NCBI GenBank assembly: GCA_028286605.1
Contig: JAQBRE010000002.1
Coordinates: 1-58,218 of the forward strand
Source: Parcubacteria group bacterium
GTDB lineage: Bacteria; Patescibacteriota; Minisyncoccia; Phycocordibacterales; Phycocordibacteraceae
Direction of reading: 5' to 3'
DNA length: 58,218 bases
A program made the translations under genes and the position numbers. Under the pieces are notes generated by a model. The model did no database searches and was not told the origin of the DNA. It worked only from the letters and a program-made list of their open reading frames with translations. This document shows, one piece after another, positions 20,848-33,603 of this stretch. Each line of letters opens with the position of its first letter. Position 1 is the first letter of the stretch.

Positions 20848-21897
20848 ATGCGCTTGGATCAACATTGTTCTGCTCGGGAGGGCATCATGACAAGAGCCTT
20901 AAGCGTACACATGCTTATGTATCCCACTGATATGTCTCCCTGGCCTCCGAAGCCAGCTGACACGACCGGTAAGTATCCCTGCAAGGCATCTGCCGGTAAT
21001 CCTACGCGCTACGATAACTGCACTGACCTGAATACGATACCGCACCAGCAGAAACGCTTCTGCAAAGGATGCCGCTGCCCATGGAGAGTCTGTGTCGCCT
21101 GTTCGTCACAGCATGCCGCCGCGCCGGATATTCGGGAGATTGATCCTGAGACCGGACTCTGCAGATGGCATACGGAATTTGGCACTGAAGCGATTCGCCC
21201 TTCGGAAGAAATCCCAGAAATACGACGTAGAAGCATCTCGGCAATTAAACATATTGATGCCAAGCCTACGGATGATGATAACGACGAGAAATATGATGGT
21301 GCTTCTGCCGAGTTCGACGTCGAACTAGTCACTCACTACTCGTTGATCGCGCATGAACGCTTCCATGGGCGACGCCGATTAATCATGCGATATCTCGAAC
21401 AGAGTGTAAGCCGAACGGAAATTGCGAAGCGTATTCGTACGCAGCCTGGTACGCTCGGCACCACGATTCTTGATATGGGTCGCATCTTGAAAGTCGACCT
21501 CAGTACGGTAGAGATGAGTTCAAAGACCGAATACATGTGCATGCTACTCATACAGATAGCGCGGCACATGCAAGAGAACGGTACCTTAGAAAAGGAAATG
21601 CCTCTGGAAGCATTCGTTCTGAGCGAAGAGCACATCGCCACATTTGCTGCGCGCATTGCGAATTTCAACTGTCGGTGGCGGAAAATCATCGAATACCTCG
21701 TACAAGGTAAAGATCGTCCCGAGATCGCGTTGATCATAGGACGCCCTGTGCGATCGGTTACGATCACGACTATCAAGATGGGTTTGGCCCTCAAGATACC
21801 GACCAGATTCATGCTGTCAGGTTCAAAAGCAGATTTGATCACAACGATTCTGATAGCTGCTGCAAAACATCCGAGCTCGAAAATTATGACCGAGTGA
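20848..21897 (+). CDS. Hypothetical Cys-rich protein with two LuxR/sigma-region-4-like HTH modules
   Basis: N-terminal Cys cluster (FCKGCRCPWRVCVACS). Two similar segments: RRRLIMRYLEQSVSRTEIAKRIRTQPGTLGTTILDMGRILKV and RWRKIIEYLVQGKDRPEIALIIGRPVRSVTITTIKMGLALKI. The true start is probably a downstream ATG (20887-20929). Confidence 0.5.
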   Translation: MRLDQHCSAREGIMTRALSVHMLMYPTDMSPWPPKPADTTGKYPCKASAGNPTRYDNCTDLNTIPHQQKRFCKGCRCPWRVCVACSSQHAAAPDIREIDPETGLCRWHTEFGTEAIRPSEEIPEIRRRSISAIKHIDAKPTDDDNDEKYDGASAEFDVELVTHYSLIAHERFHGRRRLIMRYLEQSVSRTEIAKRIRTQPGTLGTTILDMGRILKVDLSTVEMSSKTEYMCMLLIQIARHMQENGTLEKEMPLEAFVLSEEHIATFAARIANFNCRWRKIIEYLVQGKDRPEIALIIGRPVRSVTITTIKMGLALKIPTRFMLSGSKADLITTILIAAAKHPSSKIMTE

Positions 21898-21951: not shown

Positions 21952-22521
21952 CTAAAGACCTGAAGCGGCGATGCCGCGATTTATGCGGGAGATGATGTCT
22001 TTACGATCAGCTTCAACAGCGGCACGTGTCGCTTCGCTGAAGTCTTCATCGCTTTCGCCCGGTATGACACCTGCATCTAAGCCGAGCGTTCGGAGTATGC
22101 GCAGCACAGCGAGACACTCTGCTGCATCCTGTTCTTCTTCGGAAAGATTCGCGAGCGAGCCGATGAAATTCGTATAGATAATGAATAGAGCAGGATCGTT
22201 CACTTCGCCGCGTACGAAACGCAGCATGAGCTCCGCGACGCGTCCGGCACGGACGCGTGCCTTGAACGGAAGCGCACGAGACCAGTCGCGCGCAAGGATA
22301 CTACCCGCTAACCGCCAGCCCTCCTTCCCTTTTAGCAGAGTGACATCCGATTCTGCGAGCGTTTGCAGGCCAGCACTCATCTTCGCGCCTGGTTTGCGCA
22401 GCCCCTGGCTGCGCGCGCGTATCACACCGAAGTCGCCGGTGAGCAAGGTAACGAGCGAACTCGCTTCCGAAAGCGGAAATCGTGCGAGCGCTATCGCTGC
22501 TGTGGTGTATTTATGCCGCAT
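21952..22521 (-). CDS. recO: DNA repair protein RecO
   Basis: MRHKYTTAAIALARFPLSEASSLVTLLTGDFGVIRARSQGLRKPGAKM.... The ATG at 22521 overlaps the ileS stop (ATGCGGCATAA). The ORF-track extension to 22647 lies inside ileS. Confidence 0.85.
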   Translation of the reverse strand: MRHKYTTAAIALARFPLSEASSLVTLLTGDFGVIRARSQGLRKPGAKMSAGLQTLAESDVTLLKGKEGWRLAGSILARDWSRALPFKARVRAGRVAELMLRFVRGEVNDPALFIIYTNFIGSLANLSEEEQDAAECLAVLRILRTLGLDAGVIPGESDEDFSEATRAAVEADRKDIISRINRGIAASGL

Positions 22522-25500
22522 CGAGAGAAACAGCGAATAGTATCTTCCCTGTCGAAAGGTCTGCTGCATAGGGAACGTCGGATGGTGCGTCGAAGGTAAG
22601 AGATGTTGTTCCGCTGATAGATGTACCTTCGAGTATCGTGCGCGCATTTTCAGAAACCTGTACGGAAACAGAATCCTTCGGAGAAAGATTCATGGTCTTG
22701 CGGGCGTCGGCGAGTGCGCGCATGAATGCACGCACGTCGCCTTCGCGAATGAGTTCAAGAGTGAGTTCAAGATCAAGCGTTACCTCTTCCTGTTCTGCAA
22801 GTACTTCCTTTACGTTCACTTCTTCGGCAAGTATCTCTACGAGCTCGCTGCTAAGGCCGCCTGGAATAGAAAGTTTGGCGAGTGGCTGACGCACGACGAT
22901 GTTCGCTTTCTGGCGGAGCTGAAGCGCTTGCGAAGCAAGCGCTCGCACGCGTGCCATTTCTTCAATCAACTCCTCATCTACTTCCGTGGCAAGCGGCCAC
23001 GAAGTGAGGTGCACGCTCTCTGGTTCGTCTTCCACGCGTACGGCGCGATATACATATTCCGCAGTGAACGGAGCGAATGGCGCCATGAGTTTTGCCGTGT
23101 CAGAAAGAATGGATCGAAGCGTACTGAGCGCGAGCTGCGCATCTTCCCCGCCGCGCATGCGGTCGCGCGAGCGACGAACATACCACTGTGAAAGATCACC
23201 GATGAATTCACGCAACTCGCGTGTTGCCGTAAACAGATCGTATGCATCGAGTGCAGCCGTCATACGTGCAGCAGTCTGTGCGAAGCGCGCGCGTATCCAG
23301 CGATCCACGACGTGCGTACTCTCTTTTGCTTCCTTCGCCATATCCGCATCCGCATACGACTCATAGAATGCGAGCGCGTTCACGAATGGATTGAATACCT
23401 TATTCGCCACTTCCGTGACGGTCTTCTCATCGAAACTCTTGGAGTCCCCAGGCTGATTCACGCTGTACATCCAGAAGCGAAGCGTGTCTGCGCCCCAGCG
23501 TTCTATCGCCTCCCACGGATTTACGATATTGCCCTTACTCTTACTCATCTTCGCTCCCTTTTCGTCCAGCAAGTGGCCGAGACAAATAACGTTCTTATAC
23601 GGCGTACCGCGGCCCATAAGCACGCCCACAGCGAGCAGCGTGTAGAACCAGCCACGAGTCTGATCTATCGCTTCTGAAATAAAATCTGCAGGATACCCGT
23701 TCCCTTCTATCCATTCCTTGTTCTCGAACGGATAGTGATCTTCTGCGAATGGCATCGCGCCAGAATCGAACCACACATCCATCACTTCCTTCACGCGCTT
23801 CAGTTCAGTACCAGTATCAGAAAGAAGCACGACGTCGTCGATATACGGGCGATGCAGATCGAGCTCGTATGAATCGTTGTGCGGAAGCGGAATAAAGGTA
23901 AGTTCTTTCGGCGTCGCGTAGGTCGGCAACTTGTTGCCGACCATACCGCGTGAACCCGATGCGTCCGCCACCTCAGCGACAGCCATTGCCGCCTCGAAGC
24001 CGACACCGTGCGTAACGATGAGAATATTTTCATTCGTATATTTCTGCTCGAGCTCATACATGAATGAACCGAAACGGTTCTTCACATCCTGATAGCTTTC
24101 GCCGCCGGGGATGCGATCTGTGTAGCCGCAGGTATCGCGATACTTCTTGAACTCCTCGAGAGCCTTTCCATTGAAATCTCCGAAATCGAACTCACGAAGA
24201 CGCTCATCGGTATGAATCGATGATGCAGAGAAATCGAGCACTTCCGCCACGGCAGCAGCGGTCTCGCACGTGCGTGTAAGCGGCGACGCAAAGATCTTCG
24301 TTATATTCGCATCCTTCAATTGTGCGCCGCCGGCAGCTGCCTGCGCGCGGCCGTTCTCAGTAAGCGAAGACGGAAACGTCGCATCATCTTTCGTCGCGAT
24401 CGATTTCAGATTGTGCTCCGACTCCCCGTGGCGCATTACGAAATACTTGTTGCCGCTCTTCTTCACGCGCTGTTTCAGTTCTTCAACCGAGCCGATCATG
24501 ACGCGCTCAGTTCCGTCTGCATTCTCCCAAATAGGGAGCGGCGTTCCCCAATAGCGTTCACGTGATATCGCCCAGTCCTTGTCGCCGGCAAGCCACTCCC
24601 CCATGCGGCCATCGCGAATATGCGCCGGCTCCCAATTCACCTTCTGATTCTCTGCAACGAGCGTCGGGCGCAGATCGCTCATGCGGATGTACCACGAATC
24701 ACGTGCGTAATAGATGAGCGGTGTCTTGCAGCGCCAGCAGAACGGATAACTGTGCAGATGATTCTCTTGTGAGAAGAACAGATTACGCTTCTTGAGGTCG
24801 TCGATGATATCCACGGCGAGCGTGGGCTTTCCGTTCTCGTCAGCTTCCTTAACAAAGCGGCCTTCAAGGAATCCTGTTCCTGGAACGAACGTACCATCCG
24901 GCGCGACTAGATGTACCTTCGGCAAGCCGACTTTCGTGCCGAGTTCGAAATCTTCCTGCCCGTACATTACGGCGGTGTGCACGATGCCCGTACCATCTTC
25001 GGTCGTAACGAAGTCTGCAGCGTACACCTTGAACGCATTCTCGAATTTCGGCTTCTCTGTTTCCGAAGCGAGCGCTTCTGCGAATGGATAGAGCGGCTTA
25101 TATGATTTACCAATTAATTCATTCGTACTCATAGAGCCGATGTGATTCCATCCTTCAGGCAAGACTTCTTTTCGCGTATTCGCAAGAACTACTTTCTCGC
25201 CGTCTTTTTCATACACGGCATACTCGATGTCCTTCCCTACGGCGAGGCCTACGTTTCCAGGCAGCGTCCACGGCGTCGTCGTCCACGCAAGAAGATACGT
25301 ACCAGGCTCATCAACGAGTTCGAACTTCACCGTAACGGAAAGATCTTTCACGTCTGCATAGCCCTGCGCGAGTTCGTGCGTTGAAAGCGCAGTGCCGCAG
25401 CGCGCGCACCATGGAAGCACTTTGTAGTCCTTATATATACGACCATCATCGCCGATCTTCTTGAAGATCGACCAGACCGATTCCATGTACGGCGCGTTGA

Positions 25501-25957
25501 AGGTGAAGTACGCCTTCGATTGATCCACCCAGTAGCCGACACGGTCGGTGAAGCGCGCCCACTCTTCTATGTATTCAAAAACGCTCTCACGGCACTTCTT
25601 ATTGAAAGCAGCGATCCCATATACTTCGATATCCGGCTTTCCCTTGAAACCGAGCTTCTTCTCAACCTCGAGCTCAACCGGAAGGCCATGCGTGTCCCAA
25701 CCGGCACGACGCGGCACATGATAGCCGTGCATCGTCTTGTATCGCGGAATGGCATCCTTGAAGGAACGTGATTCCATGTGGTGCACGCCGGGGCGGCCAT
25801 TCGCTGTTGGCGGTCCTTCATAAAAGATGAAATCACCTTCGGTGGCCGGCTTTTCAAGCGACTTCTCGAAGATATGGTTCTCCTTCCAGAACGCCAGGAT
25901 CTCTTCCTCGCGCTTCACTGCGTCGGTCTTTTCTGGGGTCTCGCCGGTTTCAGCCAT
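22511..25957 (-). CDS. ileS: Isoleucyl-tRNA synthetase carrying an inserted histidine-phosphatase domain
   Basis: PPTANGRPGVHH (HIGH-type), CP1 editing region, KMSKS (GAKMSKSKGN), long C-terminal anticodon-binding region. 1148 aa because of a ~190-aa insertion at aa ~503-695. Confidence 0.93.
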   Translation of the reverse strand: MAETGETPEKTDAVKREEEILAFWKENHIFEKSLEKPATEGDFIFYEGPPTANGRPGVHHMESRSFKDAIPRYKTMHGYHVPRRAGWDTHGLPVELEVEKKLGFKGKPDIEVYGIAAFNKKCRESVFEYIEEWARFTDRVGYWVDQSKAYFTFNAPYMESVWSIFKKIGDDGRIYKDYKVLPWCARCGTALSTHELAQGYADVKDLSVTVKFELVDEPGTYLLAWTTTPWTLPGNVGLAVGKDIEYAVYEKDGEKVVLANTRKEVLPEGWNHIGSMSTNELIGKSYKPLYPFAEALASETEKPKFENAFKVYAADFVTTEDGTGIVHTAVMYGQEDFELGTKVGLPKVHLVAPDGTFVPGTGFLEGRFVKEADENGKPTLAVDIIDDLKKRNLFFSQENHLHSYPFCWRCKTPLIYYARDSWYIRMSDLRPTLVAENQKVNWEPAHIRDGRMGEWLAGDKDWAISRERYWGTPLPIWENADGTERVMIGSVEELKQRVKKSGNKYFVMRHGESEHNLKSIATKDDATFPSSLTENGRAQAAAGGAQLKDANITKIFASPLTRTCETAAAVAEVLDFSASSIHTDERLREFDFGDFNGKALEEFKKYRDTCGYTDRIPGGESYQDVKNRFGSFMYELEQKYTNENILIVTHGVGFEAAMAVAEVADASGSRGMVGNKLPTYATPKELTFIPLPHNDSYELDLHRPYIDDVVLLSDTGTELKRVKEVMDVWFDSGAMPFAEDHYPFENKEWIEGNGYPADFISEAIDQTRGWFYTLLAVGVLMGRGTPYKNVICLGHLLDEKGAKMSKSKGNIVNPWEAIERWGADTLRFWMYSVNQPGDSKSFDEKTVTEVANKVFNPFVNALAFYESYADADMAKEAKESTHVVDRWIRARFAQTAARMTAALDAYDLFTATRELREFIGDLSQWYVRRSRDRMRGGEDAQLALSTLRSILSDTAKLMAPFAPFTAEYVYRAVRVEDEPESVHLTSWPLATEVDEELIEEMARVRALASQALQLRQKANIVVRQPLAKLSIPGGLSSELVEILAEEVNVKEVLAEQEEVTLDLELTLELIREGDVRAFMRALADARKTMNLSPKDSVSVQVSENARTILEGTSISGTTSLTFDAPSDVPYAADLSTGKILFAVSLDAA
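23870..24451 (-). other. In-frame histidine phosphatase (PGAM-like) domain inserted within ileS
   Basis: YFVMRHGESEHN, LTENGRAQA, IFASPLTRTCETA, LREFDFGDFNG, GGESYQDV, ILIVTHGVGF. All hallmark catalytic positions appear present. Confidence 0.8.
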
Positions 25958-25983
25958 GTTCTATTCATCCTATCGTTCACCGT

Positions 25984-26022
25984 ATAAAAAGGAAATGGCC
26001 CAGCCACGCGTACGCGGCTGGA
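25984..26022 (-). terminator. Terminator-like hairpin after gene 26049-26426
   Basis: CCAGCC..(10 nt)..GGCTGG, followed on the minus strand by CCATTTCCTTTTTAT. Confidence 0.5.
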
Positions 26023-26048
26023 CCATATTCGTTTGTTTGCTCGGAACG

Positions 26049-26426
26049 CTATGCGCTCCGTTCAAGCGCCTGCTTGTGGACTTCTTCAGCGAGGATAGCG
26101 CCGGCTCGCACAGATCCCTTGCGGCGCTCTTTCTCAGAGCGCGCCATGGTGGCCGGGAAGTCGACGATCATGGTGCCTTTCCGCGCTCGCGTGATGAACG
26201 TCATCAGGTAGAACTTCGGCGAGTACTGGCCGTTCGCGATGCCCTGAACGAGAACTTCAGCATCGCGCCTGGCCTGCGCCTCAGGAATCGGAGGCCGCGC
26301 CGCAGCGCCGGCCTTGATGCAGAGTTCGTGAGGTTCGAGACCAAGCGTCCGCATGACCACGCGATAGTCCATGTGGGACTGCGACAGGATTTTCCCCTTC
26401 GGAAAAGAAAGCTTTTTTAGCGACAA
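26049..26426 (-). CDS. Small hypothetical protein (visibly GC-rich ORF)
   Basis: 125 aa. TTG start with SD GGGAG upstream (or ATG at aa 19). Co-directional with argS and ileS. The overlapping plus-strand ORF 25827-26420 is judged an antisense shadow. Confidence 0.4.
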   Translation of the reverse strand: MSLKKLSFPKGKILSQSHMDYRVVMRTLGLEPHELCIKAGAAARPPIPEAQARRDAEVLVQGIANGQYSPKFYLMTFITRARKGTMIVDFPATMARSEKERRKGSVRAGAILAEEVHKQALERSA

Positions 26427-26501
26427 TGCACGTCTCCCTTTTGCTGCCCTGAATTGAACAGTCTGTTGACTACCTTAGCATTTGTTCGTATTTTTTGCGA
26501 C

Positions 26502-28178
26502 CTACATTTTCTCGGGTGCGGGGATGGCGAGAAGAGCGAGACCATTCTGCATCGTCGTGGTGAACGCGCTCACGAGGGCGAGGGTGTTCGCTTCGTCGAT
26601 GCTGCCGATGATCTTGCCGGTCATATAAAAGGAATTCCATGCGCTGGCGAGCTGCGTTAGGTAGGTGGTGAGAATGTGCGGCGCACGGAGCACTTCAGCA
26701 CGCCTGACTATTTCAGGGAAACGAGTGATAAGGCGTGCGAGGAGCGGGATGTCGTTCGCGAAAGCAGGTGAAGCCGCAGGCTTCACCTCCGACGCTGCGA
26801 GTATTGAATTGGCACGCACCAATGCGTACTGCAAGTACGGTCCTGAATCGCCTTCGAGCGAAAGAGACTTCTCCATATCGAAAATAATGTCACCGCCGGC
26901 AGACTGGCGAAGGATCATGTATTTGATAGCACCGAGCGCGACCTGTTCGGCAATGAGCGGATCTTCGTTCTTCTCGCTTGCGCGCTCTATAACATCACGA
27001 ATGAGCTCTTCCGCCTTGATCACATTCCCTTCGCGTGAAGACATCTTCCCTGTCGTGAGCTTCAGGAAGCCATGCGCGATATGCGCCATTTTGGAAGATA
27101 GCTGCGGCGCGAAGTCCGCGAGCGCAGCGAGCAGGATAACGAAGTGGCCGATCTGTTCTGCAGCCGTGACTATGAATACCTGATCCGGCTGTACATGCTC
27201 TTCTTTCCAGAATGCGAGACCGATGTCTTTTGCTTCATACGTTGGCGTGCCGCGCGAGGTTATAAAAACGAGCGTATGCAATCCTTTCTTCTCTCCTTTG
27301 TATATGACCGCTCCTTCGCTTTCTTCGAAGACGCCGTTCGCGAGTTCGTCCTTAACGATACGCATGCCTATAGGCGTTACTTCGCTTTCGAATATCGTGT
27401 AGTCGAACTTCGTGCCAAGGCGCGCCCAGAGCGTGCGGTATGCAGCGAGCGAAACTTCCCTGCCGTGAAGCCATGCATCATGCAGTGTACGTTCTTCACC
27501 AACGAGCGAAGCGGAGTCTTTTTCGTTCATCACGTAGATTTCTGTGTTGAGCGCATCGATCTCTGCTTTCGCTTTCTCGCTTTCCTCGTACGCACGCGAA
27601 CCGTGCGCATACGCCTTGCCGATATCTTCTGATGTCGCCGTTTCAAGCGAGCCGCTATCGCGAAGTCCCCATATCGCTTTCGCAACATGCGGGCCGACAT
27701 CGCCGCCATAGGTATCGCGCAGCACCGTTGCACCGGATGATTCCATCAGACGCGAAACTGATTCGCCGATGATAGTGCTCATCAAATGACCAATATGCAT
27801 CTCTTTGAACGGGTTCGGGTTCGAATACTCGATCATGATGCGCGCGCCAGCGCGCGCATCGCTCTTCCCCCATCCCTCACCCTTTGCTTCTTCAAGTGTG
27901 GCGCCCACCGCCTGCGGAGAAAGAGTGATGTTTATGAATCCAGGGCCGGCCACTTCGATACGCGAGGCGTCTTCGCCGAGCGCATCCTGAAGCGCGGGCA
28001 CGAGCTGCTCCGCCACTTCCTTCGGGCTTATGCCAAGCACTTTGCTCGCGGCTAATCCAGCGTTAATTGCGAAGTCGCCGTGCGAAGGGTCTGCCGGCCA
28101 TTCCACAGCGAAATTCACCTCGCCTGCGCCGAGTTCAGCCAGCTTCTTCTGTACGATTCCGCGAATGCGCTCTTCCAT
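26502..28178 (-). CDS. argS: Arginyl-tRNA synthetase
   Basis: N-terminal Arg-tRNA-binding domain, NPNPFKEMHIGHLMSTIIGES (HIGH), C-terminal DALR-type domain ending in M. Confidence 0.92.
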   Translation of the reverse strand: MEERIRGIVQKKLAELGAGEVNFAVEWPADPSHGDFAINAGLAASKVLGISPKEVAEQLVPALQDALGEDASRIEVAGPGFINITLSPQAVGATLEEAKGEGWGKSDARAGARIMIEYSNPNPFKEMHIGHLMSTIIGESVSRLMESSGATVLRDTYGGDVGPHVAKAIWGLRDSGSLETATSEDIGKAYAHGSRAYEESEKAKAEIDALNTEIYVMNEKDSASLVGEERTLHDAWLHGREVSLAAYRTLWARLGTKFDYTIFESEVTPIGMRIVKDELANGVFEESEGAVIYKGEKKGLHTLVFITSRGTPTYEAKDIGLAFWKEEHVQPDQVFIVTAAEQIGHFVILLAALADFAPQLSSKMAHIAHGFLKLTTGKMSSREGNVIKAEELIRDVIERASEKNEDPLIAEQVALGAIKYMILRQSAGGDIIFDMEKSLSLEGDSGPYLQYALVRANSILAASEVKPAASPAFANDIPLLARLITRFPEIVRRAEVLRAPHILTTYLTQLASAWNSFYMTGKIIGSIDEANTLALVSAFTTTMQNGLALLAIPAPEKM

Positions 28179-28213: not shown

Positions 28214-30730
28214 TTAACACTCGTATGAACCTGCACAACCTGTTCCATCATTCTTACGCGGCGTACCTTCAATATCCCCCGGGAAACCTGCATCTCCTGT
28301 GGGAACGCGGTTCGTAAGACCTGTGGTCACATTCGGCTTATACCAACCAAGACCTGTGCCGTTACCAGCCCAGCCTCCCGTCCACGCGGTATTCCCGTTA
28401 TTCGCCATGAAGGTGAACGTGCTCTGGCTATACCCTGCACTGCTCGTGTTTCCAGGGAGGCCAAGATAATCGGCCTGTGTTTCAGCGAATCCAGGAGCGG
28501 CGCCTGAATCGATACCGTTCGGCCCTGTAACATCCCCAAGATCACCAACGCCGAAGCGCATACGCCAGTTTCCTACGCGTGCACCGCACAGCTGACCCGT
28601 ATTGAATGCCGAGATGCTTGCCGTCGCTGTCGCTCCGGTTCCATCACCCGTAATTGTTACGGTAGGCGCACTTGCGTATCCTTCACCTCCGGTATTCCCG
28701 CAGACCGTCGTATCGAGCGTTATGGTCGAGACCGCGCCACCTGAAAGATTCGCGTGAGCAAGCGCCGTCACGTCATTAGCGCTACCGCTTGGATTTCCGA
28801 CCGTTACCGTAGCAGTGGTGTACCCGCTACCGCCAGCCGTTACGGTTATGGTGGTTACGAAACGATCCAATGGGTTCGAGAAATAATCACCCTTGCTATA
28901 GCGATCGAAATCAATATTGAACAAATCATTCCCCGTTTTTAGTACACTCGTAGTTCCCAGGCTGTTGTAATACATATTCGTGCGATTTCCTGTCGTCGTA
29001 TTGTATTGACGAAGTAAATTCGAGAACGTTGTTATGTCGTCATCTGCACCGAAACTGAACGCAGGCGAGACGCTGCTTGAACCGACTTCTTCAAACACAT
29101 TCTGTACGAATGCGACATTGTTTCTTGAAACGAGACCGCCGGTCATGGCAACGATTTGCGCATTGTTGACGTTCATCATCTTGTTGAACGCTATCAGCAA
29201 GCTTGGCTCAGTTACACTACTGATACGCATTGCTGACATAACGTTGCCGAGAACCGTATTAGGAGCTACGATCGCAGAGCTTCCAGGAATTCCCAATACT
29301 GTGGAACCGAATTCCGTCGCGGTCTCTCCTGTTGCGCCGAAACTACTGAGAATTCTTGAGTCGCCGAGAGATTCGTCGATATACGAATTATAGTATTCGC
29401 GCCAACCGATCTGGTTAGTCCACGCGCTCACGGCTGCTTGTGTCTCGTCCAGCCACGAGCCTTGAAATATATTGTGCGCGAGCACGGTTCCCGAACCGGT
29501 GTCCGGCCCTGCGATAACCGTTTTATTTGATGCGTTATCAGTGAATTTCAGATTCTTGAAGAACGTCGTATTTCCAGAAATATTATTCGTTGAAGCATCA
29601 ATATCCGTATCGGCAGCGCTGTGTCCTGGTTCCGCTGAAATAACCATATAGGTAGAACAGTTCGTCGGAGCATCGAGCGCGAGACTTCCGGCGAATCCCG
29701 TCGTCGTACCTGCTTTCAAATATATGATTCCGCCGCAGGCGTTATTGTGGCCATCATTCGCGTTGTAGTAGGTCTTAATAGCATCTGCAGCATTCTTTAT
29801 GTTGGCATAATATGCCGTCGTACCCGGGTCGGTCGCCGTCGTTTGTACTGCAGGGCTGGCGCCTGCACCAGCCGGACTCACCCACGCATATATCGGTACA
29901 TACTTGTCGTTCTTATCGTTGAGAATCTGCAGGCTCTTTAGTGTTGGCGTAATGACGCTCGCAGCCACCGGAATACCGTCAGCGCCCTGAGACGTGTCGA
30001 GCGTGATGGTGCCGAAATTACTATACGCGACGGCCTTCACGGTGGTGGTTCCTTGCGCAAGCGTATCCATTTCAGCACTGGAGAATGTTGCTGCATATAC
30101 GTATACAGGGTCACCAAGCGTTACCTTCACCGTGCCGTTAGCCGTTGCGTTCGTGTTCAGCGTCAATTGCGTTGGGGAATCCACAGAACTGATCCTTGGT
30201 TCACCAATACCTACGCCAGAAGCAGTACCCGTACTAACCGTCGTATACATTCCAGCGATCATACCCGTCGTGCTACCGCAGGAAGTGAGCACCGCAGAAC
30301 CGCTCGTTGCCGTACAGGTCGTTGAGGTTAGATACGTAGATTGCGTCATCGTAGAAGTCGTATGGCTTACTGATACGCTGCCGTCAGTAGCGGTGAATGT
30401 CACTGAAGCCACTTGCCCGTTATTACGGGGGAACTTACTTACGACTGAAAATTCAACAGTGAAGGGCGTTGTGGACGCGCGACGCAAATTAGTTGGCGTT
30501 ACCCATGCGCCAATAGGACGATACTCACCTACTGTAGAGTTGTTCGTTGCCGCGAGTGTGGTAACCGCTGCGGTAGAGGTGCTGTGCGTATACCATCCAG
30601 AGAGACCCGTCAGCGTCACCGTATCGGTAGGAAGAATATCGTCAGAGAGTAGTACGGTCGTCGTTAGATTCCCGCCACTCGCCGTTTCGGTCGTCGTAGC
30701 TCCATTAGGGTATGGGAATCGGAATGGCAC
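28214..30730 (-). CDS. C-terminal part of a giant surface protein (beta-helix-like middle; separated from 30664-33603 by a frameshift)
   Basis: 838-aa ORF starting at an internal GTG. Its frame stays open upstream to at least 30898 and reads protein-like sequence (ARIDPELTFNVSTHGYDSSGNATT...). Confidence 0.7.
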   Translation of the reverse strand: MPFRFPYPNGATTTETASGGNLTTTVLLSDDILPTDTVTLTGLSGWYTHSTSTAAVTTLAATNNSTVGEYRPIGAWVTPTNLRRASTTPFTVEFSVVSKFPRNNGQVASVTFTATDGSVSVSHTTSTMTQSTYLTSTTCTATSGSAVLTSCGSTTGMIAGMYTTVSTGTASGVGIGEPRISSVDSPTQLTLNTNATANGTVKVTLGDPVYVYAATFSSAEMDTLAQGTTTVKAVAYSNFGTITLDTSQGADGIPVAASVITPTLKSLQILNDKNDKYVPIYAWVSPAGAGASPAVQTTATDPGTTAYYANIKNAADAIKTYYNANDGHNNACGGIIYLKAGTTTGFAGSLALDAPTNCSTYMVISAEPGHSAADTDIDASTNNISGNTTFFKNLKFTDNASNKTVIAGPDTGSGTVLAHNIFQGSWLDETQAAVSAWTNQIGWREYYNSYIDESLGDSRILSSFGATGETATEFGSTVLGIPGSSAIVAPNTVLGNVMSAMRISSVTEPSLLIAFNKMMNVNNAQIVAMTGGLVSRNNVAFVQNVFEEVGSSSVSPAFSFGADDDITTFSNLLRQYNTTTGNRTNMYYNSLGTTSVLKTGNDLFNIDFDRYSKGDYFSNPLDRFVTTITVTAGGSGYTTATVTVGNPSGSANDVTALAHANLSGGAVSTITLDTTVCGNTGGEGYASAPTVTITGDGTGATATASISAFNTGQLCGARVGNWRMRFGVGDLGDVTGPNGIDSGAAPGFAETQADYLGLPGNTSSAGYSQSTFTFMANNGNTAWTGGWAGNGTGLGWYKPNVTTGLTNRVPTGDAGFPGDIEGTPRKNDGTGCAGSYEC

Positions 30731-33603
30731 GGTTCCAAGTATCGAACGACTAAGCGTCGTGGCGTTTCCAGAGGAATCATATCCATGCGTAGAAACATTG
30801 AATGTGAGTTCGGGGTCGATTCGGGCGTAAGCGCGTACGTGCCGCGTGACGTAAGACCCTTCACGGTGATGTCGGCAAGATAGCCGCTCGATTCTATCGA
30901 TACGCCGGTAACCGTTCCGTCTGCCACTACTCCTGAAGAGGTGGTGACTGTCTGATCACTTGAGGTCGCGAGATTGCCAGATGCATCTGCTGCCTGAATT
31001 TGGAAATGATACGTAGTAGCTGCCGAGAGACCCGTCAATGTAATGGAGTGCGAGGTCGCAAGAGTAGAAGAACTCGAAGCGGTTCCATACGCGATGCTCG
31101 TGCCGTATGCAATCGTTGAAGAGGCATTCTCGTTCGTTGTCCACGTTATGGTTGCGCCAGAAGAACTGGAAGAAGTAGCTATTGAAGAGATAATCGGCGG
31201 AGTCGTGTCTGGTGCTGATGTCGTAATGAATGTGAGATCGCTCGAGGTCGCCACATTATTCGATACGTCTGCTGAGGCGACTTGGTAGTGATACGTCGTA
31301 GCGGCAGTGAGCCCCGTAAGGGTTACGGTGTGAGATGTAACAAGAGCTGCAGAGGTAGAGGCAGTTCCGTATACAGACGTTGTTCCGTAATTCACCGTGG
31401 ACGACGCGTTCTCATTCGTGGTCCACGTGATGGTTGCTCCCGTTGAAGTAGTCGAAGATGCAATCGAAGAAAGCACTGGAGCAGTATTGTCGACCGTTAC
31501 CGTTATTGGTGAAGATGTCGCAAGATTGCCCGCAGCATCGCGCGCAACCGCAAGAAGCGTGTGTGAGCCCGTCGATGTGGCCGTTGTGTTCCATGTAATG
31601 GCGTACGGCGCAGAAGTGTCTTCAGCACTAAGAAGCGCGCCATCAAGTTTGAATTGAACGCCCACGACAGCCACATCGTCTGAGGCAGAAGCAGTAACTG
31701 CGACCGAGGTACCCGAGACGGTACTGCCGCCGGCGGGTGCAGTGAGAGCAACGGTCGGTGGCGTTGTGTCTGGTGCAGCAGACGTAGTCACGGTTTGGTC
31801 GCTTGAGGTTGCTAGATTGCCCGACGCGTCCGCAGATTGAACTTGGTAGTGATACGTAGTGGCTGCTATGAGGCCGGTGAGCGTAATGGAGTGCGAAGTC
31901 GCAAGAGCAGAAGAGCTGGAAGCAGTGCCGTATGCGCTGCTCGCGCCGTATGCAACCGTGGAGGATGCATTCTCGTTTGTCGTCCACGTTATCGTTGCAG
32001 TGCTTGCTGTTGGGGAGCTCGCAATTGCTGAAATAGTTGGAGGCGTTACGTCAGGTGCTGCCGTTGTAGTGAATGTGAGATCCGAAGACGTAGCGACATT
32101 GTTCGATGCATCCGCTGACGCAACCTGGAAGTGATAAAGAGTTGACGCAGCAAGTCCGGAAAGAGTGATTGAGTGCGACGTTATCAATGTTGCCGTAGTA
32201 GATGCAGTGCCATAGGTGCTGCTCGTTCCGTAATTCACCGTGGACGACGCGTTCTCATTCGTGGTCCATGTGATGGTTGCTCCCGAGAACGTCGGTGAAG
32301 AGACAATCGAGCTAAGCACAGGCGGTGTTACATCAAGAGTGGCCGTGGTGGTCACGGTGCGGTCGGTCGACGTGGCAAGGTTGCCCGAACTATCCGCAGA
32401 TTGAATCTGGTAGTGATACACCGTAGACGCCGTAAGGCCGGTGAGCGTAATGGTGTGCGAGGTGACAAAGGGTGACGACGAAGACGCAGTGCCATAGCCG
32501 GTAGTAGTGCCGTATGCAACCGTGGAGGATGCAGCCTCATTCGTGGTCCATGTAATAGTGGCTGCCGTTGCGCTTGAAGTGCTCGCTATAGAAGAAATGA
32601 CCGGAGGCGTTATGTCGGGAGCCGCGCTGGTTGTAAATGTCTGGTCTGCTGAGTACGCAGTATTTCCTGAGGAATCAGCAGTACGGATACGAAAATGATA
32701 CGTAGTAGCTACGGTAAGTCCGGTGATCGTAACGGAATGCGAGGTGACAAGCGAAGTATCTGGTGTTGTCGTTGCTCCATATGAAGAGGTTGTTCCGTAT
32801 GCGACATCTGAATCTGCAGATTCGTCCGTAGTCCACTGTATAGTCGCAGAGGTAGTACCCGGAGTTCCTGATGATATGGCTGAGACGACAGGTGGAGTCG
32901 TATCAGATGGAGGCGCGCTCTGACTACTTCCACCCCCTCCCCCGCTACCCTCCGAAGCTCCAGATGAAATACCTCCATTGGCATTCGTAAATTCAGGGTG
33001 TGTCGACGCCGTTCCGGATGAAGAGCCGCTTGATACCGTAACGAGCACGGCACGGGTCAATGGGCCGACAGTGCCGACGCTTGGGAGGCCGTGGGCGGCC
33101 TGAAAGGCCGCTACTGCATTCTTCGTAACCGCACCAAAATACCCCGTGATTGTCGGATACGTATAAAAACCGGCGTTTTTAAGGAACTGCTGAAGAGCAC
33201 TGACATCTGTACCTGTTGAACCGGTATCGAGTATACGCGTAAGTACAAGAGTGGGAGCAGATTCCGGTGCAGAGACCGCTATACCTGGTGCAGATGCTGC
33301 TATTCCAGTATTCAAAAGGTTAAGAGTAATCGGACCAACCAGACCGATTGATGAAATGTCATGGGCGGCCTGAAAGGCCGCCACCGCATTCTTCGTAACC
33401 TGTCCAAAATATCCGGTTATGTTTGGAAACGTGTAAAAACCAGCATTTTTGAGGAATTGCTGGAGTGCAGAAACGTCCGTACCAGTCGAACCAACTGAAA
33501 GCGGGCGGCCAAACGTTGCGGCGTGGGAGTGTGCCGGGACACAAAGCAACAGTGCAAATAATGTTGCGCCGATAAAGCGCCTAGAACAGTTCCCTCTTTC
33601 CAT
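30664..33603 (-). CDS. N-terminal part of giant surface protein: signal peptide, 2 PG-binding domains, 6 Fn3-like repeats + 1 Ig-like domain
   Basis: MERGNCSRRFIGATLFALLLCVPAHSHA signal. Two copies of VGSTGTDVSALQQFLKNAGFYT...VTKNAVAAFQAAH. Repeats of ...ATITWTTNENASSTV.YGT...YG.....L.TSH.ITLTGL.A.T.YH.Q. The last ~35 aa look out of frame. Confidence 0.8.
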   Translation of the reverse strand: MERGNCSRRFIGATLFALLLCVPAHSHAATFGRPLSVGSTGTDVSALQQFLKNAGFYTFPNITGYFGQVTKNAVAAFQAAHDISSIGLVGPITLNLLNTGIAASAPGIAVSAPESAPTLVLTRILDTGSTGTDVSALQQFLKNAGFYTYPTITGYFGAVTKNAVAAFQAAHGLPSVGTVGPLTRAVLVTVSSGSSSGTASTHPEFTNANGGISSGASEGSGGGGGSSQSAPPSDTTPPVVSAISSGTPGTTSATIQWTTDESADSDVAYGTTSSYGATTTPDTSLVTSHSVTITGLTVATTYHFRIRTADSSGNTAYSADQTFTTSAAPDITPPVISSIASTSSATAATITWTTNEAASSTVAYGTTTGYGTASSSSPFVTSHTITLTGLTASTVYHYQIQSADSSGNLATSTDRTVTTTATLDVTPPVLSSIVSSPTFSGATITWTTNENASSTVNYGTSSTYGTASTTATLITSHSITLSGLAASTLYHFQVASADASNNVATSSDLTFTTTAAPDVTPPTISAIASSPTASTATITWTTNENASSTVAYGASSAYGTASSSSALATSHSITLTGLIAATTYHYQVQSADASGNLATSSDQTVTTSAAPDTTPPTVALTAPAGGSTVSGTSVAVTASASDDVAVVGVQFKLDGALLSAEDTSAPYAITWNTTATSTGSHTLLAVARDAAGNLATSSPITVTVDNTAPVLSSIASSTTSTGATITWTTNENASSTVNYGTTSVYGTASTSAALVTSHTVTLTGLTAATTYHYQVASADVSNNVATSSDLTFITTSAPDTTPPIISSIATSSSSSGATITWTTNENASSTIAYGTSIAYGTASSSSTLATSHSITLTGLSAATTYHFQIQAADASGNLATSSDQTVTTSSGVVADGTVTGVSIESSGYLADITVKGLTSRGTYALTPESTPNSHSMFLRMDMIPLETPRRLVVRYLEPCHSDSHTLMELRRPKRRVAGI
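30950..32900 (-). repeat. Tandem coding repeats (~280-290 nt Fn3-like units, 6 copies, one Ig-like unit interposed)
   Basis: Near-identical DNA blocks, for example 31382-31441 versus 32225-32284 (one mismatch in ~60 nt by eye). Confidence 0.8.

Follow-up and report, generated by a model that had tools for sequence, protein, structure and literature searches.

A histidine-phosphatase domain nested within the isoleucyl-tRNA synthetase of Paceibacteria

Few enzymes have been studied as closely as the aminoacyl-tRNA synthetases, whose accessory domains nearly always function in tRNA binding or editing. The closest described system to the one reported here is the isoleucyl-tRNA synthetase (IleRS) of SR1 bacteria, members of the candidate phyla radiation (CPR), which was stated in a single sentence to be split by phosphoglycerate mutase (PGAM) domains (Kantor et al. 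2013, mBio; PMC3812714). The same authors noted the same interrupted gene in a second genome, ACD80, and gave no position, conservation, origin or function for the insert (PMC3812714). Here we analyzed a 58,218-nucleotide stretch of DNA from a tiny-genome Parcubacteria group bacterium (contig JAQBRE010000002.1, positions 1 to 58,218; hereafter, the window), in which the ileS gene encodes an IleRS of 1148 amino acids (aa) with a histidine-phosphatase domain nested in its catalytic core. As in SR1, the frame of a CPR ileS gene is interrupted in-frame by a PGAM-family (His_Phos) domain. The SR1 enzyme is described as being in four parts with one Nudix and two PGAM domains, whereas in the protein of the window one PGAM-family domain occupies the tip of the connective peptide 3 (CP3) hairpin; Pfam found only one His_Phos_1 stretch and no NUDIX match in it. 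The SR1 source also belongs to a different CPR class than the Paceibacteria, from which our protein comes.

Full-text literature searches yielded no paper on this IleRS-phosphatase protein, leaving Kantor et al. 2013 as the sole precedent. An earlier reading of this DNA, made from its letters alone (the sequence-only reading), had held that no synthetase with an embedded phosphatase was described, which is not quite right, since the SR1 sentence predates it. The interruption of a CPR IleRS by a PGAM-family domain had already been noted before, while the Paceibacteria-wide single insertion at CP3, its probable origin from an adjacent gene, the alternative insertion sites and a case in valyl-tRNA synthetase (ValRS) appear to be new. 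Annotation has overlooked the insert, and the protein is called simply 'isoleucyl-tRNA synthetase'.

Other parallels are more general. NCBIfam already curates an IleRS with an extra enzymatic domain under NF040702, 'isoleucine--tRNA ligase, N-acetyltransferase domain-containing'; our protein is not a member, scoring 308.8 bits on this model (ileS_w_GNAT; cut-off 1999), and no acetyltransferase family was found in its Pfam scan. The CP1 editing domain and the leucine-specific domain of LeuRS are likewise autonomous folds housed in loops of the Rossmann-fold catalytic domain. However, those inserts serve the fidelity of aminoacylation and are universal in their families, whereas here an unrelated phosphoryl-transfer enzyme has been inserted, one that is also known as a neighboring gene of its own. 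A 2026 survey of domain insertions found synthetases to be frequent hosts, with phosphatases unmentioned (PMC13114784).

The nested domain and its host synthetase

The ileS gene is one uninterrupted open reading frame (ORF) of 1148 codons. Its product scored 861.9 bits on the NCBIfam ileS equivalog model TIGR00392 (cut-off 621.4), and a Pfam scan found the tRNA-synt_1 domain (PF00133) cut into two stretches, with Anticodon_1 and DUF5915 downstream of the insert. The closest PDB sequences in a phmmer search were 8C8W (E=3e-223) and 1ILE (E=4e-222), both of them IleRS2. AlphaFold2 modeling of the whole 1148-aa protein gave a mean predicted local distance difference test score (pLDDT) of 84 and a predicted TM-score (pTM) of 0.75, and this model matched IleRS2 structures in Foldseek with TM-scores, normalized by target length (TMt), of 0.80-0.90. 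The host is a type-2 IleRS, with P. megaterium IleRS2 and Thermus IleRS as its best sequence and fold matches.

Conservation was assessed in 121 sequences, consisting of the IleRS of the window and the best 120 protein clusters. In place of the class I signature HXGH, our protein has GVHH, of which H59 is kept in 119 sequences and H60 in all 121. This G/AXHH variant of the motif leads to mupirocin hyper-resistance in IleRS2 (Brkic et al. 2023; PMC10485003), and the best sequence and fold match of the host, 8C8W, is the GVHH mutant of P. megaterium IleRS2 from that work. Unlike ours, the G/AXHH proteins contain no nested enzyme, and their CP3 has the normal short length, whether or not a zinc knuckle is present. 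In the KMSKS motif, the K, M, S and K residues are invariant and the final S is present in 120 sequences; the CP1 editing motifs WTTTPWTLPGN and GTG.VH.A are invariant as well. The GVHH and KMSKS motifs, the editing-domain motifs, the anticodon-binding domains and the first zinc site are all intact in our protein. As an observation apart, the fourth cysteine of this first (CP-core) zinc site, C410 (CWRC; window 24728-24730, minus strand), is replaced by serine in 40 of the 121 close relatives, suggesting that this site may also be eroding in the clade.

The inserted segment was matched by His_Phos_1 (PF00300) at aa 506-662 (E=3.5e-34; 118.6 bits, cut-off 21.7). In a phmmer alignment with Thermus IleRS (1ILE), residues 14-500 and 699-1018 of our protein correspond to Thermus residues 11-482 and 488-819, so that approximately 198 residues stand where the Thermus enzyme has approximately 5. 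The junction reads 'ARATK/PLPEPF' in Thermus and 'QRVKK/(189 aa)/PLPHND' in our protein or, in longer form, '...ELKARATK/PLPEPFDPHRPY...' and '...ELKQRVKK/(189 aa)/PLPHNDSYELDLHRPY...'. The insertion point is the tip of the CP3 hairpin, located in the insertion region of the Rossmann fold between 'RYWGTPLPIW' and 'DVWFDSG'. The limits of the insert (aa 501-689) were set by end-to-end alignment with free-standing homologues together with the Thermus junction. In the full-length AlphaFold2 model, most 10-residue blocks of the insert had a pLDDT of 88-96, and the insert modeled alone with its flanks reached 92.4. Foldseek matched the latter model to PspA, PhoE, TIGAR, Rv2419c, CobC and small phosphoglycerate mutases with a probability of 1.0, and TM-scores were 0.69-0.77 to 4IJ6, 1H2E, 4QIH and 1FZT (E about 1e-13). 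As modeled, the module is an autonomous domain, with its N- and C-termini leading back into both strands of the CP3 hairpin.

These results agree in most respects with the sequence-only reading, which had described a continuous 1148-aa frame and a histidine-phosphatase domain lying in-frame within the IleRS core, and had anticipated that a Pfam scan would find tRNA-synt_1 split by His_Phos_1. Its placement of the domain at 23870-24451 (aa 503-696) was right as to location and off by a few codons as to the exact limits (Table 1), and every histidine-phosphatase motif that it listed is present. The insert is a member of branch 1 of the histidine phosphatase superfamily with a complete catalytic set (Table 1), and the equivalents of R509, H510, R562 and H650 are invariant in the free-standing homologues too. 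Mean identity to our protein across the 121 sequences was 46% for the insert as compared to 75% for the catalytic core. Invariance of the catalytic residues despite this low identity is the pattern of an active phosphoryl-transfer site, and the insert is apparently catalytically intact and active.

CP3 is a small variable subdomain that contains a zinc motif in Thermus IleRS and none in the S. aureus or C. albicans enzymes (PMC7191050). The Thermus CP3 cysteines, CQAC...CAC, are represented by ENADG...SDTG in our protein, and the alignment contained no cysteine at either CP3 zinc position in the query or its 120 close relatives, in keeping with the earlier suggestion that the flanking cysteine pairs had been lost. 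We considered whether the insert might be a replacement for the zinc knuckle. However, many other IleRS proteins with the CP3 insert retain the four-cysteine knuckle, and one insert-less IleRS (L081) has nevertheless lost it. This explanation was therefore ruled out, and the loss of zinc ligands in the query lineage was a separate event rather than a consequence of the insertion.

Distribution, gene neighborhood and origin

The best 120 protein clusters (61-87% identity), which were drawn from NCBI, JGI, ENA and Logan and lie on contigs of up to 795 kb, all contain both PF00300 and PF00133, and their names are Parcubacteria, Paceibacterota or Pacebacteria. A scan of one genome per GTDB species gave at least 419 confirmed insert-bearing loci. 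The best 80 of these all span the full 235-aa junction-crossing query and belong to Kaiser-, Nomura-, Vogel- and Lloydbacteria, Minisyncoccia and other Paceibacteria. The survey of related genomes proposed in the sequence-only reading thus recovered the same insertion in both collections. In hundreds of species, an unrelated phosphoryl-transfer enzyme with an intact catalytic set is found inside an essential synthetase.

This distribution also bears on the possibility that the locus represents an artefact or a mobile element, whether an assembly chimera, an intein or an in-frame insertion sequence. The unusual architecture might be taken to favor such an origin, as might one distant relative in which a transposase domain is nested elsewhere in IleRS. 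However, hundreds of independent assemblies, some of them with contigs of 0.5-0.8 Mb, share the two junctions of the insert, which excludes chimeric assembly, and GC content is flat across both junctions. The Pfam scan of the 1148-aa protein found no HINT (intein) domain, and no direct or inverted repeats of note flank the insert. The residue that follows the 'HN' of the conserved 'PHN' in relatives is mostly D, E or A, not the C, S or T nucleophile of an intein, with S, K or P also seen; the sequence-only reading had likewise seen no intein-like junction residues. With no HINT domain, no nucleophile junctions and no notable flanking repeats, intein or mobile-element insertion was ruled out, and an artefactual or mobile-element origin is effectively refuted.

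When 1.84 billion cluster representatives were searched exhaustively by HMMER with the insert as query, 15,052 matched at E<=1e-3, and the best 150 of these were either class Ia synthetases and fragments of them or free-standing proteins of approximately 190 aa (38-45% identity). A profile built from the free proteins only scored 164.7 bits on the embedded domain, as compared to 118.6 bits for the generic Pfam model. The embedded segment ('KKSGNKYFVMRHG...PKELTFI') aligns with the free proteins ('M..NNKYFLLRHG...GELREL') over their whole length, from the initial Met to the stop codon. In all nine sister-lineage contexts examined, the free phosphatase gene adjoins an insert-less ileS. It is co-directional with and immediately upstream of ileS in seven of them, with gaps of 4-130 nt or one small ORF between the two genes, and convergent with ileS in the other two. 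In seven of the nine contexts it also directly follows argS, with junctions that overlap or are separated by no more than 5 nt.

The usual gene order in the sister lineages is argS-hisphos-ileS-recO, with the phosphatase gene between the two synthetase genes, and the wider synteny is PolX-Nudix...infC-rpmI-rplT, smpB, argS, hisphos, ileS, recO and CLIPPER/DUF11. The window and nearly all of the best 80 loci contain an argS-ileS-recO-DUF11 block with the phosphatase inside ileS and without a second, free-standing gene for it. No other His_Phos ORF was found in the window outside ileS, and a remnant of a phosphatase gene in the 544-nt argS-ileS spacer was ruled out on this ground. The spacer also had no credible Rfam match (no riboswitch or T-box). 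Because the same phosphatase is a separate gene beside ileS in sister lineages, the simplest and most likely account is that ileS took up this entire neighboring gene in one of its loops. We also noticed that loci L081, L083-L085 and L087 share a small Nudix hydrolase gene beside a PolX gene, upstream of smpB/infC and a few kb ahead of argS-hisphos-ileS, which is of note in view of the Nudix domain that SR1 IleRS nests together with its PGAM domains (Kantor et al. 2013).

Cluster representatives from the insert search revealed further nested architectures. Two IleRS proteins have two tandem His_Phos copies at the CP3 site (P0165 and P0400), and another has one CP3 copy and one in the loop after 'DVWFDSGAMPFA' (P0141). 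In P0146 and P0202, there is no CP3 copy, and His_Phos domains instead occupy this second loop and a third one, which precedes the anticodon-binding domain; the P0146 cluster has a member on a 1.06-Mb contig. Four copies are present in one fragment (P0124). A ValRS (P0245; JGI, 47.8-kb contig), which is a true ValRS according to its score on the valS model (848.8 bits, cut-off 704), has a His_Phos domain in the CP1 region and another at the CP3-equivalent site. Finally, an IleRS on an 11.3-kb JGI contig (P0174) combines His_Phos at CP3 with two other nested domains, a GNAT in the second loop and, in-frame in the CP1 region, a RAYT/IS200-like tyrosine transposase (NF047646; 81.3 bits, cut-off 80). 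The nearest neighbors of the His_Phos copies at the second and third sites were mostly CP3-site domains, at identities (0.36-0.46) too low to trace their descent. The CP3 hairpin tip and the two other loops constitute permissive sites for engineering domain insertions into IleRS. With a free neighboring gene, a single insertion, tandem copies and alternative loops, this is an unusually clean natural case of the origin of a nested domain, and because the same protein occurs in all of these forms, the steps of nesting can be reconstructed.

Activity of the nested domain and competing explanations

The closest solved relatives of the insert in phmmer searches were the phosphatases TIGAR, PspA and PhoE, not mutases. 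The small broad-specificity phosphatases PhoE (1H2E/1EBB), PspA (4IJ5), CobC (6NRU), Rv2419c (4QIH) and TIGAR (3E9C/3DCY) share its fold and its R-H-R-E-H catalytic set and are similar to it in size. Their similarity to the insert in phmmer ranged from E=5e-16 to 1e-6, with identities of just 23-27%, and all of them are free-standing, whereas the phosphatase of the window is nested in a synthetase. On the NCBIfam models, the insert scored 83.6 bits for CobC, alpha-ribazole phosphatase (TIGR03162; cut-off 162.9), 83.0 bits for the archaeal cofactor-dependent phosphoglycerate mutase (dPGM) model dPGM_arch (NF038349; cut-off 225), 75.2 bits for PspA, phosphoserine phosphatase (NF045917; cut-off 350), 38.7 bits for the dPGM model pgm_1 (TIGR01258; cut-off 81.7) and 26.9 bits for SixA (TIGR00249; cut-off 74.5). 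The mutase option raised in the sequence-only reading is at odds with the two dPGM scores. FTGW, ERHYG..NK, WRR and HGN, the dPGM-specific motifs of E. coli GpmA, do not occur in the query sequence. A lead from MutT1 (Nudix plus His_Phos) was set aside; it concerns the dephosphorylation of phosphohistidine proteins, so a nucleotide substrate is not favored by that work.

We consider it probable that whole-gene nesting gave rise to a bifunctional protein in which both parts are intact and a phosphomonoesterase is tethered to, or co-expressed with, IleRS. The gene for a branch-1 histidine phosphatase of approximately 190 aa, lying beside ileS, would have entered the CP3 hairpin in-frame at its tip. 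H510, the predicted nucleophile, would form a phosphohistidine intermediate, with R509, R562 and H650 holding the phosphate and E589 donating a proton. Rather than being a phosphoglycerate mutase, the module would then work independently as a 'broad-specificity' phosphomonoesterase like PhoE, PspA and CobC, displayed on the surface of the synthetase and produced 1:1 with IleRS. That selection and not accident links this phosphatase to class Ia synthetases is suggested by the conserved gene adjacency, by the multiple copies and by the way in which insertion has recurred, both at other loops of IleRS and in ValRS, and the scattered insertion sites point to tethering or co-expression rather than to precise channeling from the synthetic site. 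Gene adjacency together with repeated, independent IleRS and ValRS fusions is a classical Rosetta-stone signal for a connection with tRNA charging, and the repeated pairing with IleRS, ValRS and argS ties this phosphatase subfamily to that process in CPR bacteria. A weak first guess is that the substrate might be a small phosphomonoester, either of nucleotide type or a metabolite, with a connection to tRNA charging.

Several observations weigh against this interpretation. The direction of events may have been the reverse, with the domain excised from ileS to become a free gene. In a rough neighbor-joining tree, which carries no support values, the insert-less IleRS of L084 falls within the clade that bears the insert, implying several gains or losses. 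The insert reached no NCBIfam equivalog among dPGM, CobC, PspA and SixA. The Rosetta-stone signal is weakened by the scattered insertion sites and by the presence of transposase and GNAT domains in the same host. Indeed, unrelated genes have become nested in CPR IleRS as well, namely the transposase and GNAT domains of P0174 and the Nudix domain of SR1, indicating that nesting can occur without functional coupling.

More specifically, the domain might be a repair or quality-control module coupled to charging, acting on something that the synthetase binds or makes. Its target could be a phosphate or pyrophosphate of the kind that tRNA-targeting toxins leave at the 3'-terminal A76 of tRNA, or a nucleotide that arises as a by-product of aminoacylation or inhibits it. 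This role, which corresponds to the tRNA-end and adenylate by-product ideas of the sequence-only reading, is the main rival explanation but seems to us unlikely, although part of the evidence speaks for it. The domain has been recruited repeatedly and independently into class Ia enzymes that bind tRNA (at least three loops of IleRS, and ValRS), its free-standing gene tightly adjoins argS and ileS, its catalytic residues are invariant, and a Nudix domain accompanies the PGAM domains of SR1 IleRS. In addition, toxins are known that pyrophosphorylate the CCA end of tRNA. However, the insertion sites are scattered over the surface of the synthetase and include a loop beside the anticodon-binding domain, unlike the geometry expected of channeling; the substrates of histidine phosphatases are phosphomonoesters, which aminoacyl-adenylates and ApnA are not; and no member of the family is known to act on RNA ends. 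If this role were nonetheless the true one, for which we see a rather small chance, the domain would be a new accessory catalytic domain of class Ia synthetases acting on tRNA or on a nucleotide tied to charging. It might, for example, prepare damaged or toxin-modified tRNA for aminoacylation by stripping a phosphate or pyrophosphate from the 3' terminus, and CPR bacteria would have recruited the phosphatase repeatedly, into IleRS loops, into ValRS and beside argS, because its activity must sit on the synthetase.

It is less probable still that the domain is a metabolic enzyme of the cell, such as its phosphoglycerate mutase or, e.g., a phosphoserine phosphatase, which was fused to IleRS only for expression in a streamlined genome, a moonlighting role that the sequence-only reading had also suggested. 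CPR genomes are gene-poor, the top Foldseek match of the insert is the small monomeric phosphoglycerate mutase of S. pombe (1FZT), with PspA next, the short archaeal dPGM model is among its best NCBIfam matches at 83 bits, and JGI labels some free homologues 'probable phosphoglycerate mutase'. On the other hand, the scores on all mutase and phosphoserine-phosphatase models were far below the cut-offs, the dPGM-specific motifs of GpmA are missing from the sequence, and up to four copies per synthetase, together with the ValRS copies, are hard to square with a single metabolic need. That the domain is structural filler, stabilizing CP3 after the loss of the zinc knuckle or persisting as a neutral passenger, is highly improbable. 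The query lineage does lack all four CP3 cysteines, and the insert does evolve faster than the core, but R509, H510, R562 and H650 are invariant in all 121 sequences and in the free-standing forms, and many insert-bearing proteins keep the four-cysteine knuckle, while the insert-less L081 has lost it.

Feature coordinates and other genes of the window

The features of the ileS locus are collected in Table 1.

Table 1. Positions in the window of ileS, the nested phosphatase module, its predicted catalytic residues and the adjoining genes
Feature	Position	Strand	Evidence
ileS, 1148-aa type-2 isoleucyl-tRNA synthetase, host of the nested domain	22511..25957	-	ORF, TIGR00392, PDB matches
Class I signature motif, non-canonical form GVHH, aa 57-60	25778..25789	-	Translation, conservation
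N-terminal half of CP3 hairpin, aa 470-500, WGTPLPIWENADGTERVMIGSVEELKQRVKK; zinc CxxC lost	24458..24550	-	Alignment to Thermus 'WVCQACGKEE'
Nested histidine-phosphatase module, aa 501-689, SGNKYFVMRHG...PKELTFI	23891..24457	-	Pfam, alignment with free homologues, AlphaFold2/Foldseek
R509-H510 of the RHG motif; H510 is the predicted phospho-accepting nucleophile	24428..24433	-	Both invariant, 121/121
R562, second phosphate-binding arginine (SPLTR)	24272..24274	-	Invariant, 121/121
E589, predicted general acid (LRE)	24191..24193	-	E in 117 and D in 4 of 121
H650, second catalytic histidine (THG)	24008..24010	-	Invariant, 121/121
C-terminal half of CP3 hairpin, aa 690-726, PLPHNDSYELDLHRPYIDDVVLLSDTGTELKRV...; second Cys pair lost	23780..23890	-	Alignment
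KMSKS motif, intact, aa 803-807	23537..23551	-	Conservation in 121 sequences
argS-ileS spacer, 544 nt, raised GC (0.59-0.62)	25958-26501		
argS, directly upstream of ileS	26502..28178	-	Pfam Arg_tRNA_synt_N, tRNA-synt_1d, DALR_1; synteny
recO, downstream member of the conserved argS-ileS-recO block	21952..22647	-	Pfam RecO_N; synteny

Three further genes of the window were noted. Between recO and the DUF11/CLIPPER gene, which are neighbors in nearly all related loci, lies an ORF of 349 aa (window 20848-21897, plus strand) with no Pfam match and a GC content of about 0.49, as compared to about 0.54. It has a cysteine-rich N-terminus and two similar helix-turn-helix-like segments, and looks like a lineage-specific inserted gene. 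Directly upstream of argS is an 838-aa ORF (window 28214-30730, minus strand), which matched no Pfam family at E<=0.001. The 979-aa protein encoded at window positions 30664-33603 (minus strand) contains six Pur_ac_phosph_N repeats, two peptidoglycan-binding domains, and fn3 and bacterial Ig domains, and is probably a large surface or cell-wall-associated protein.

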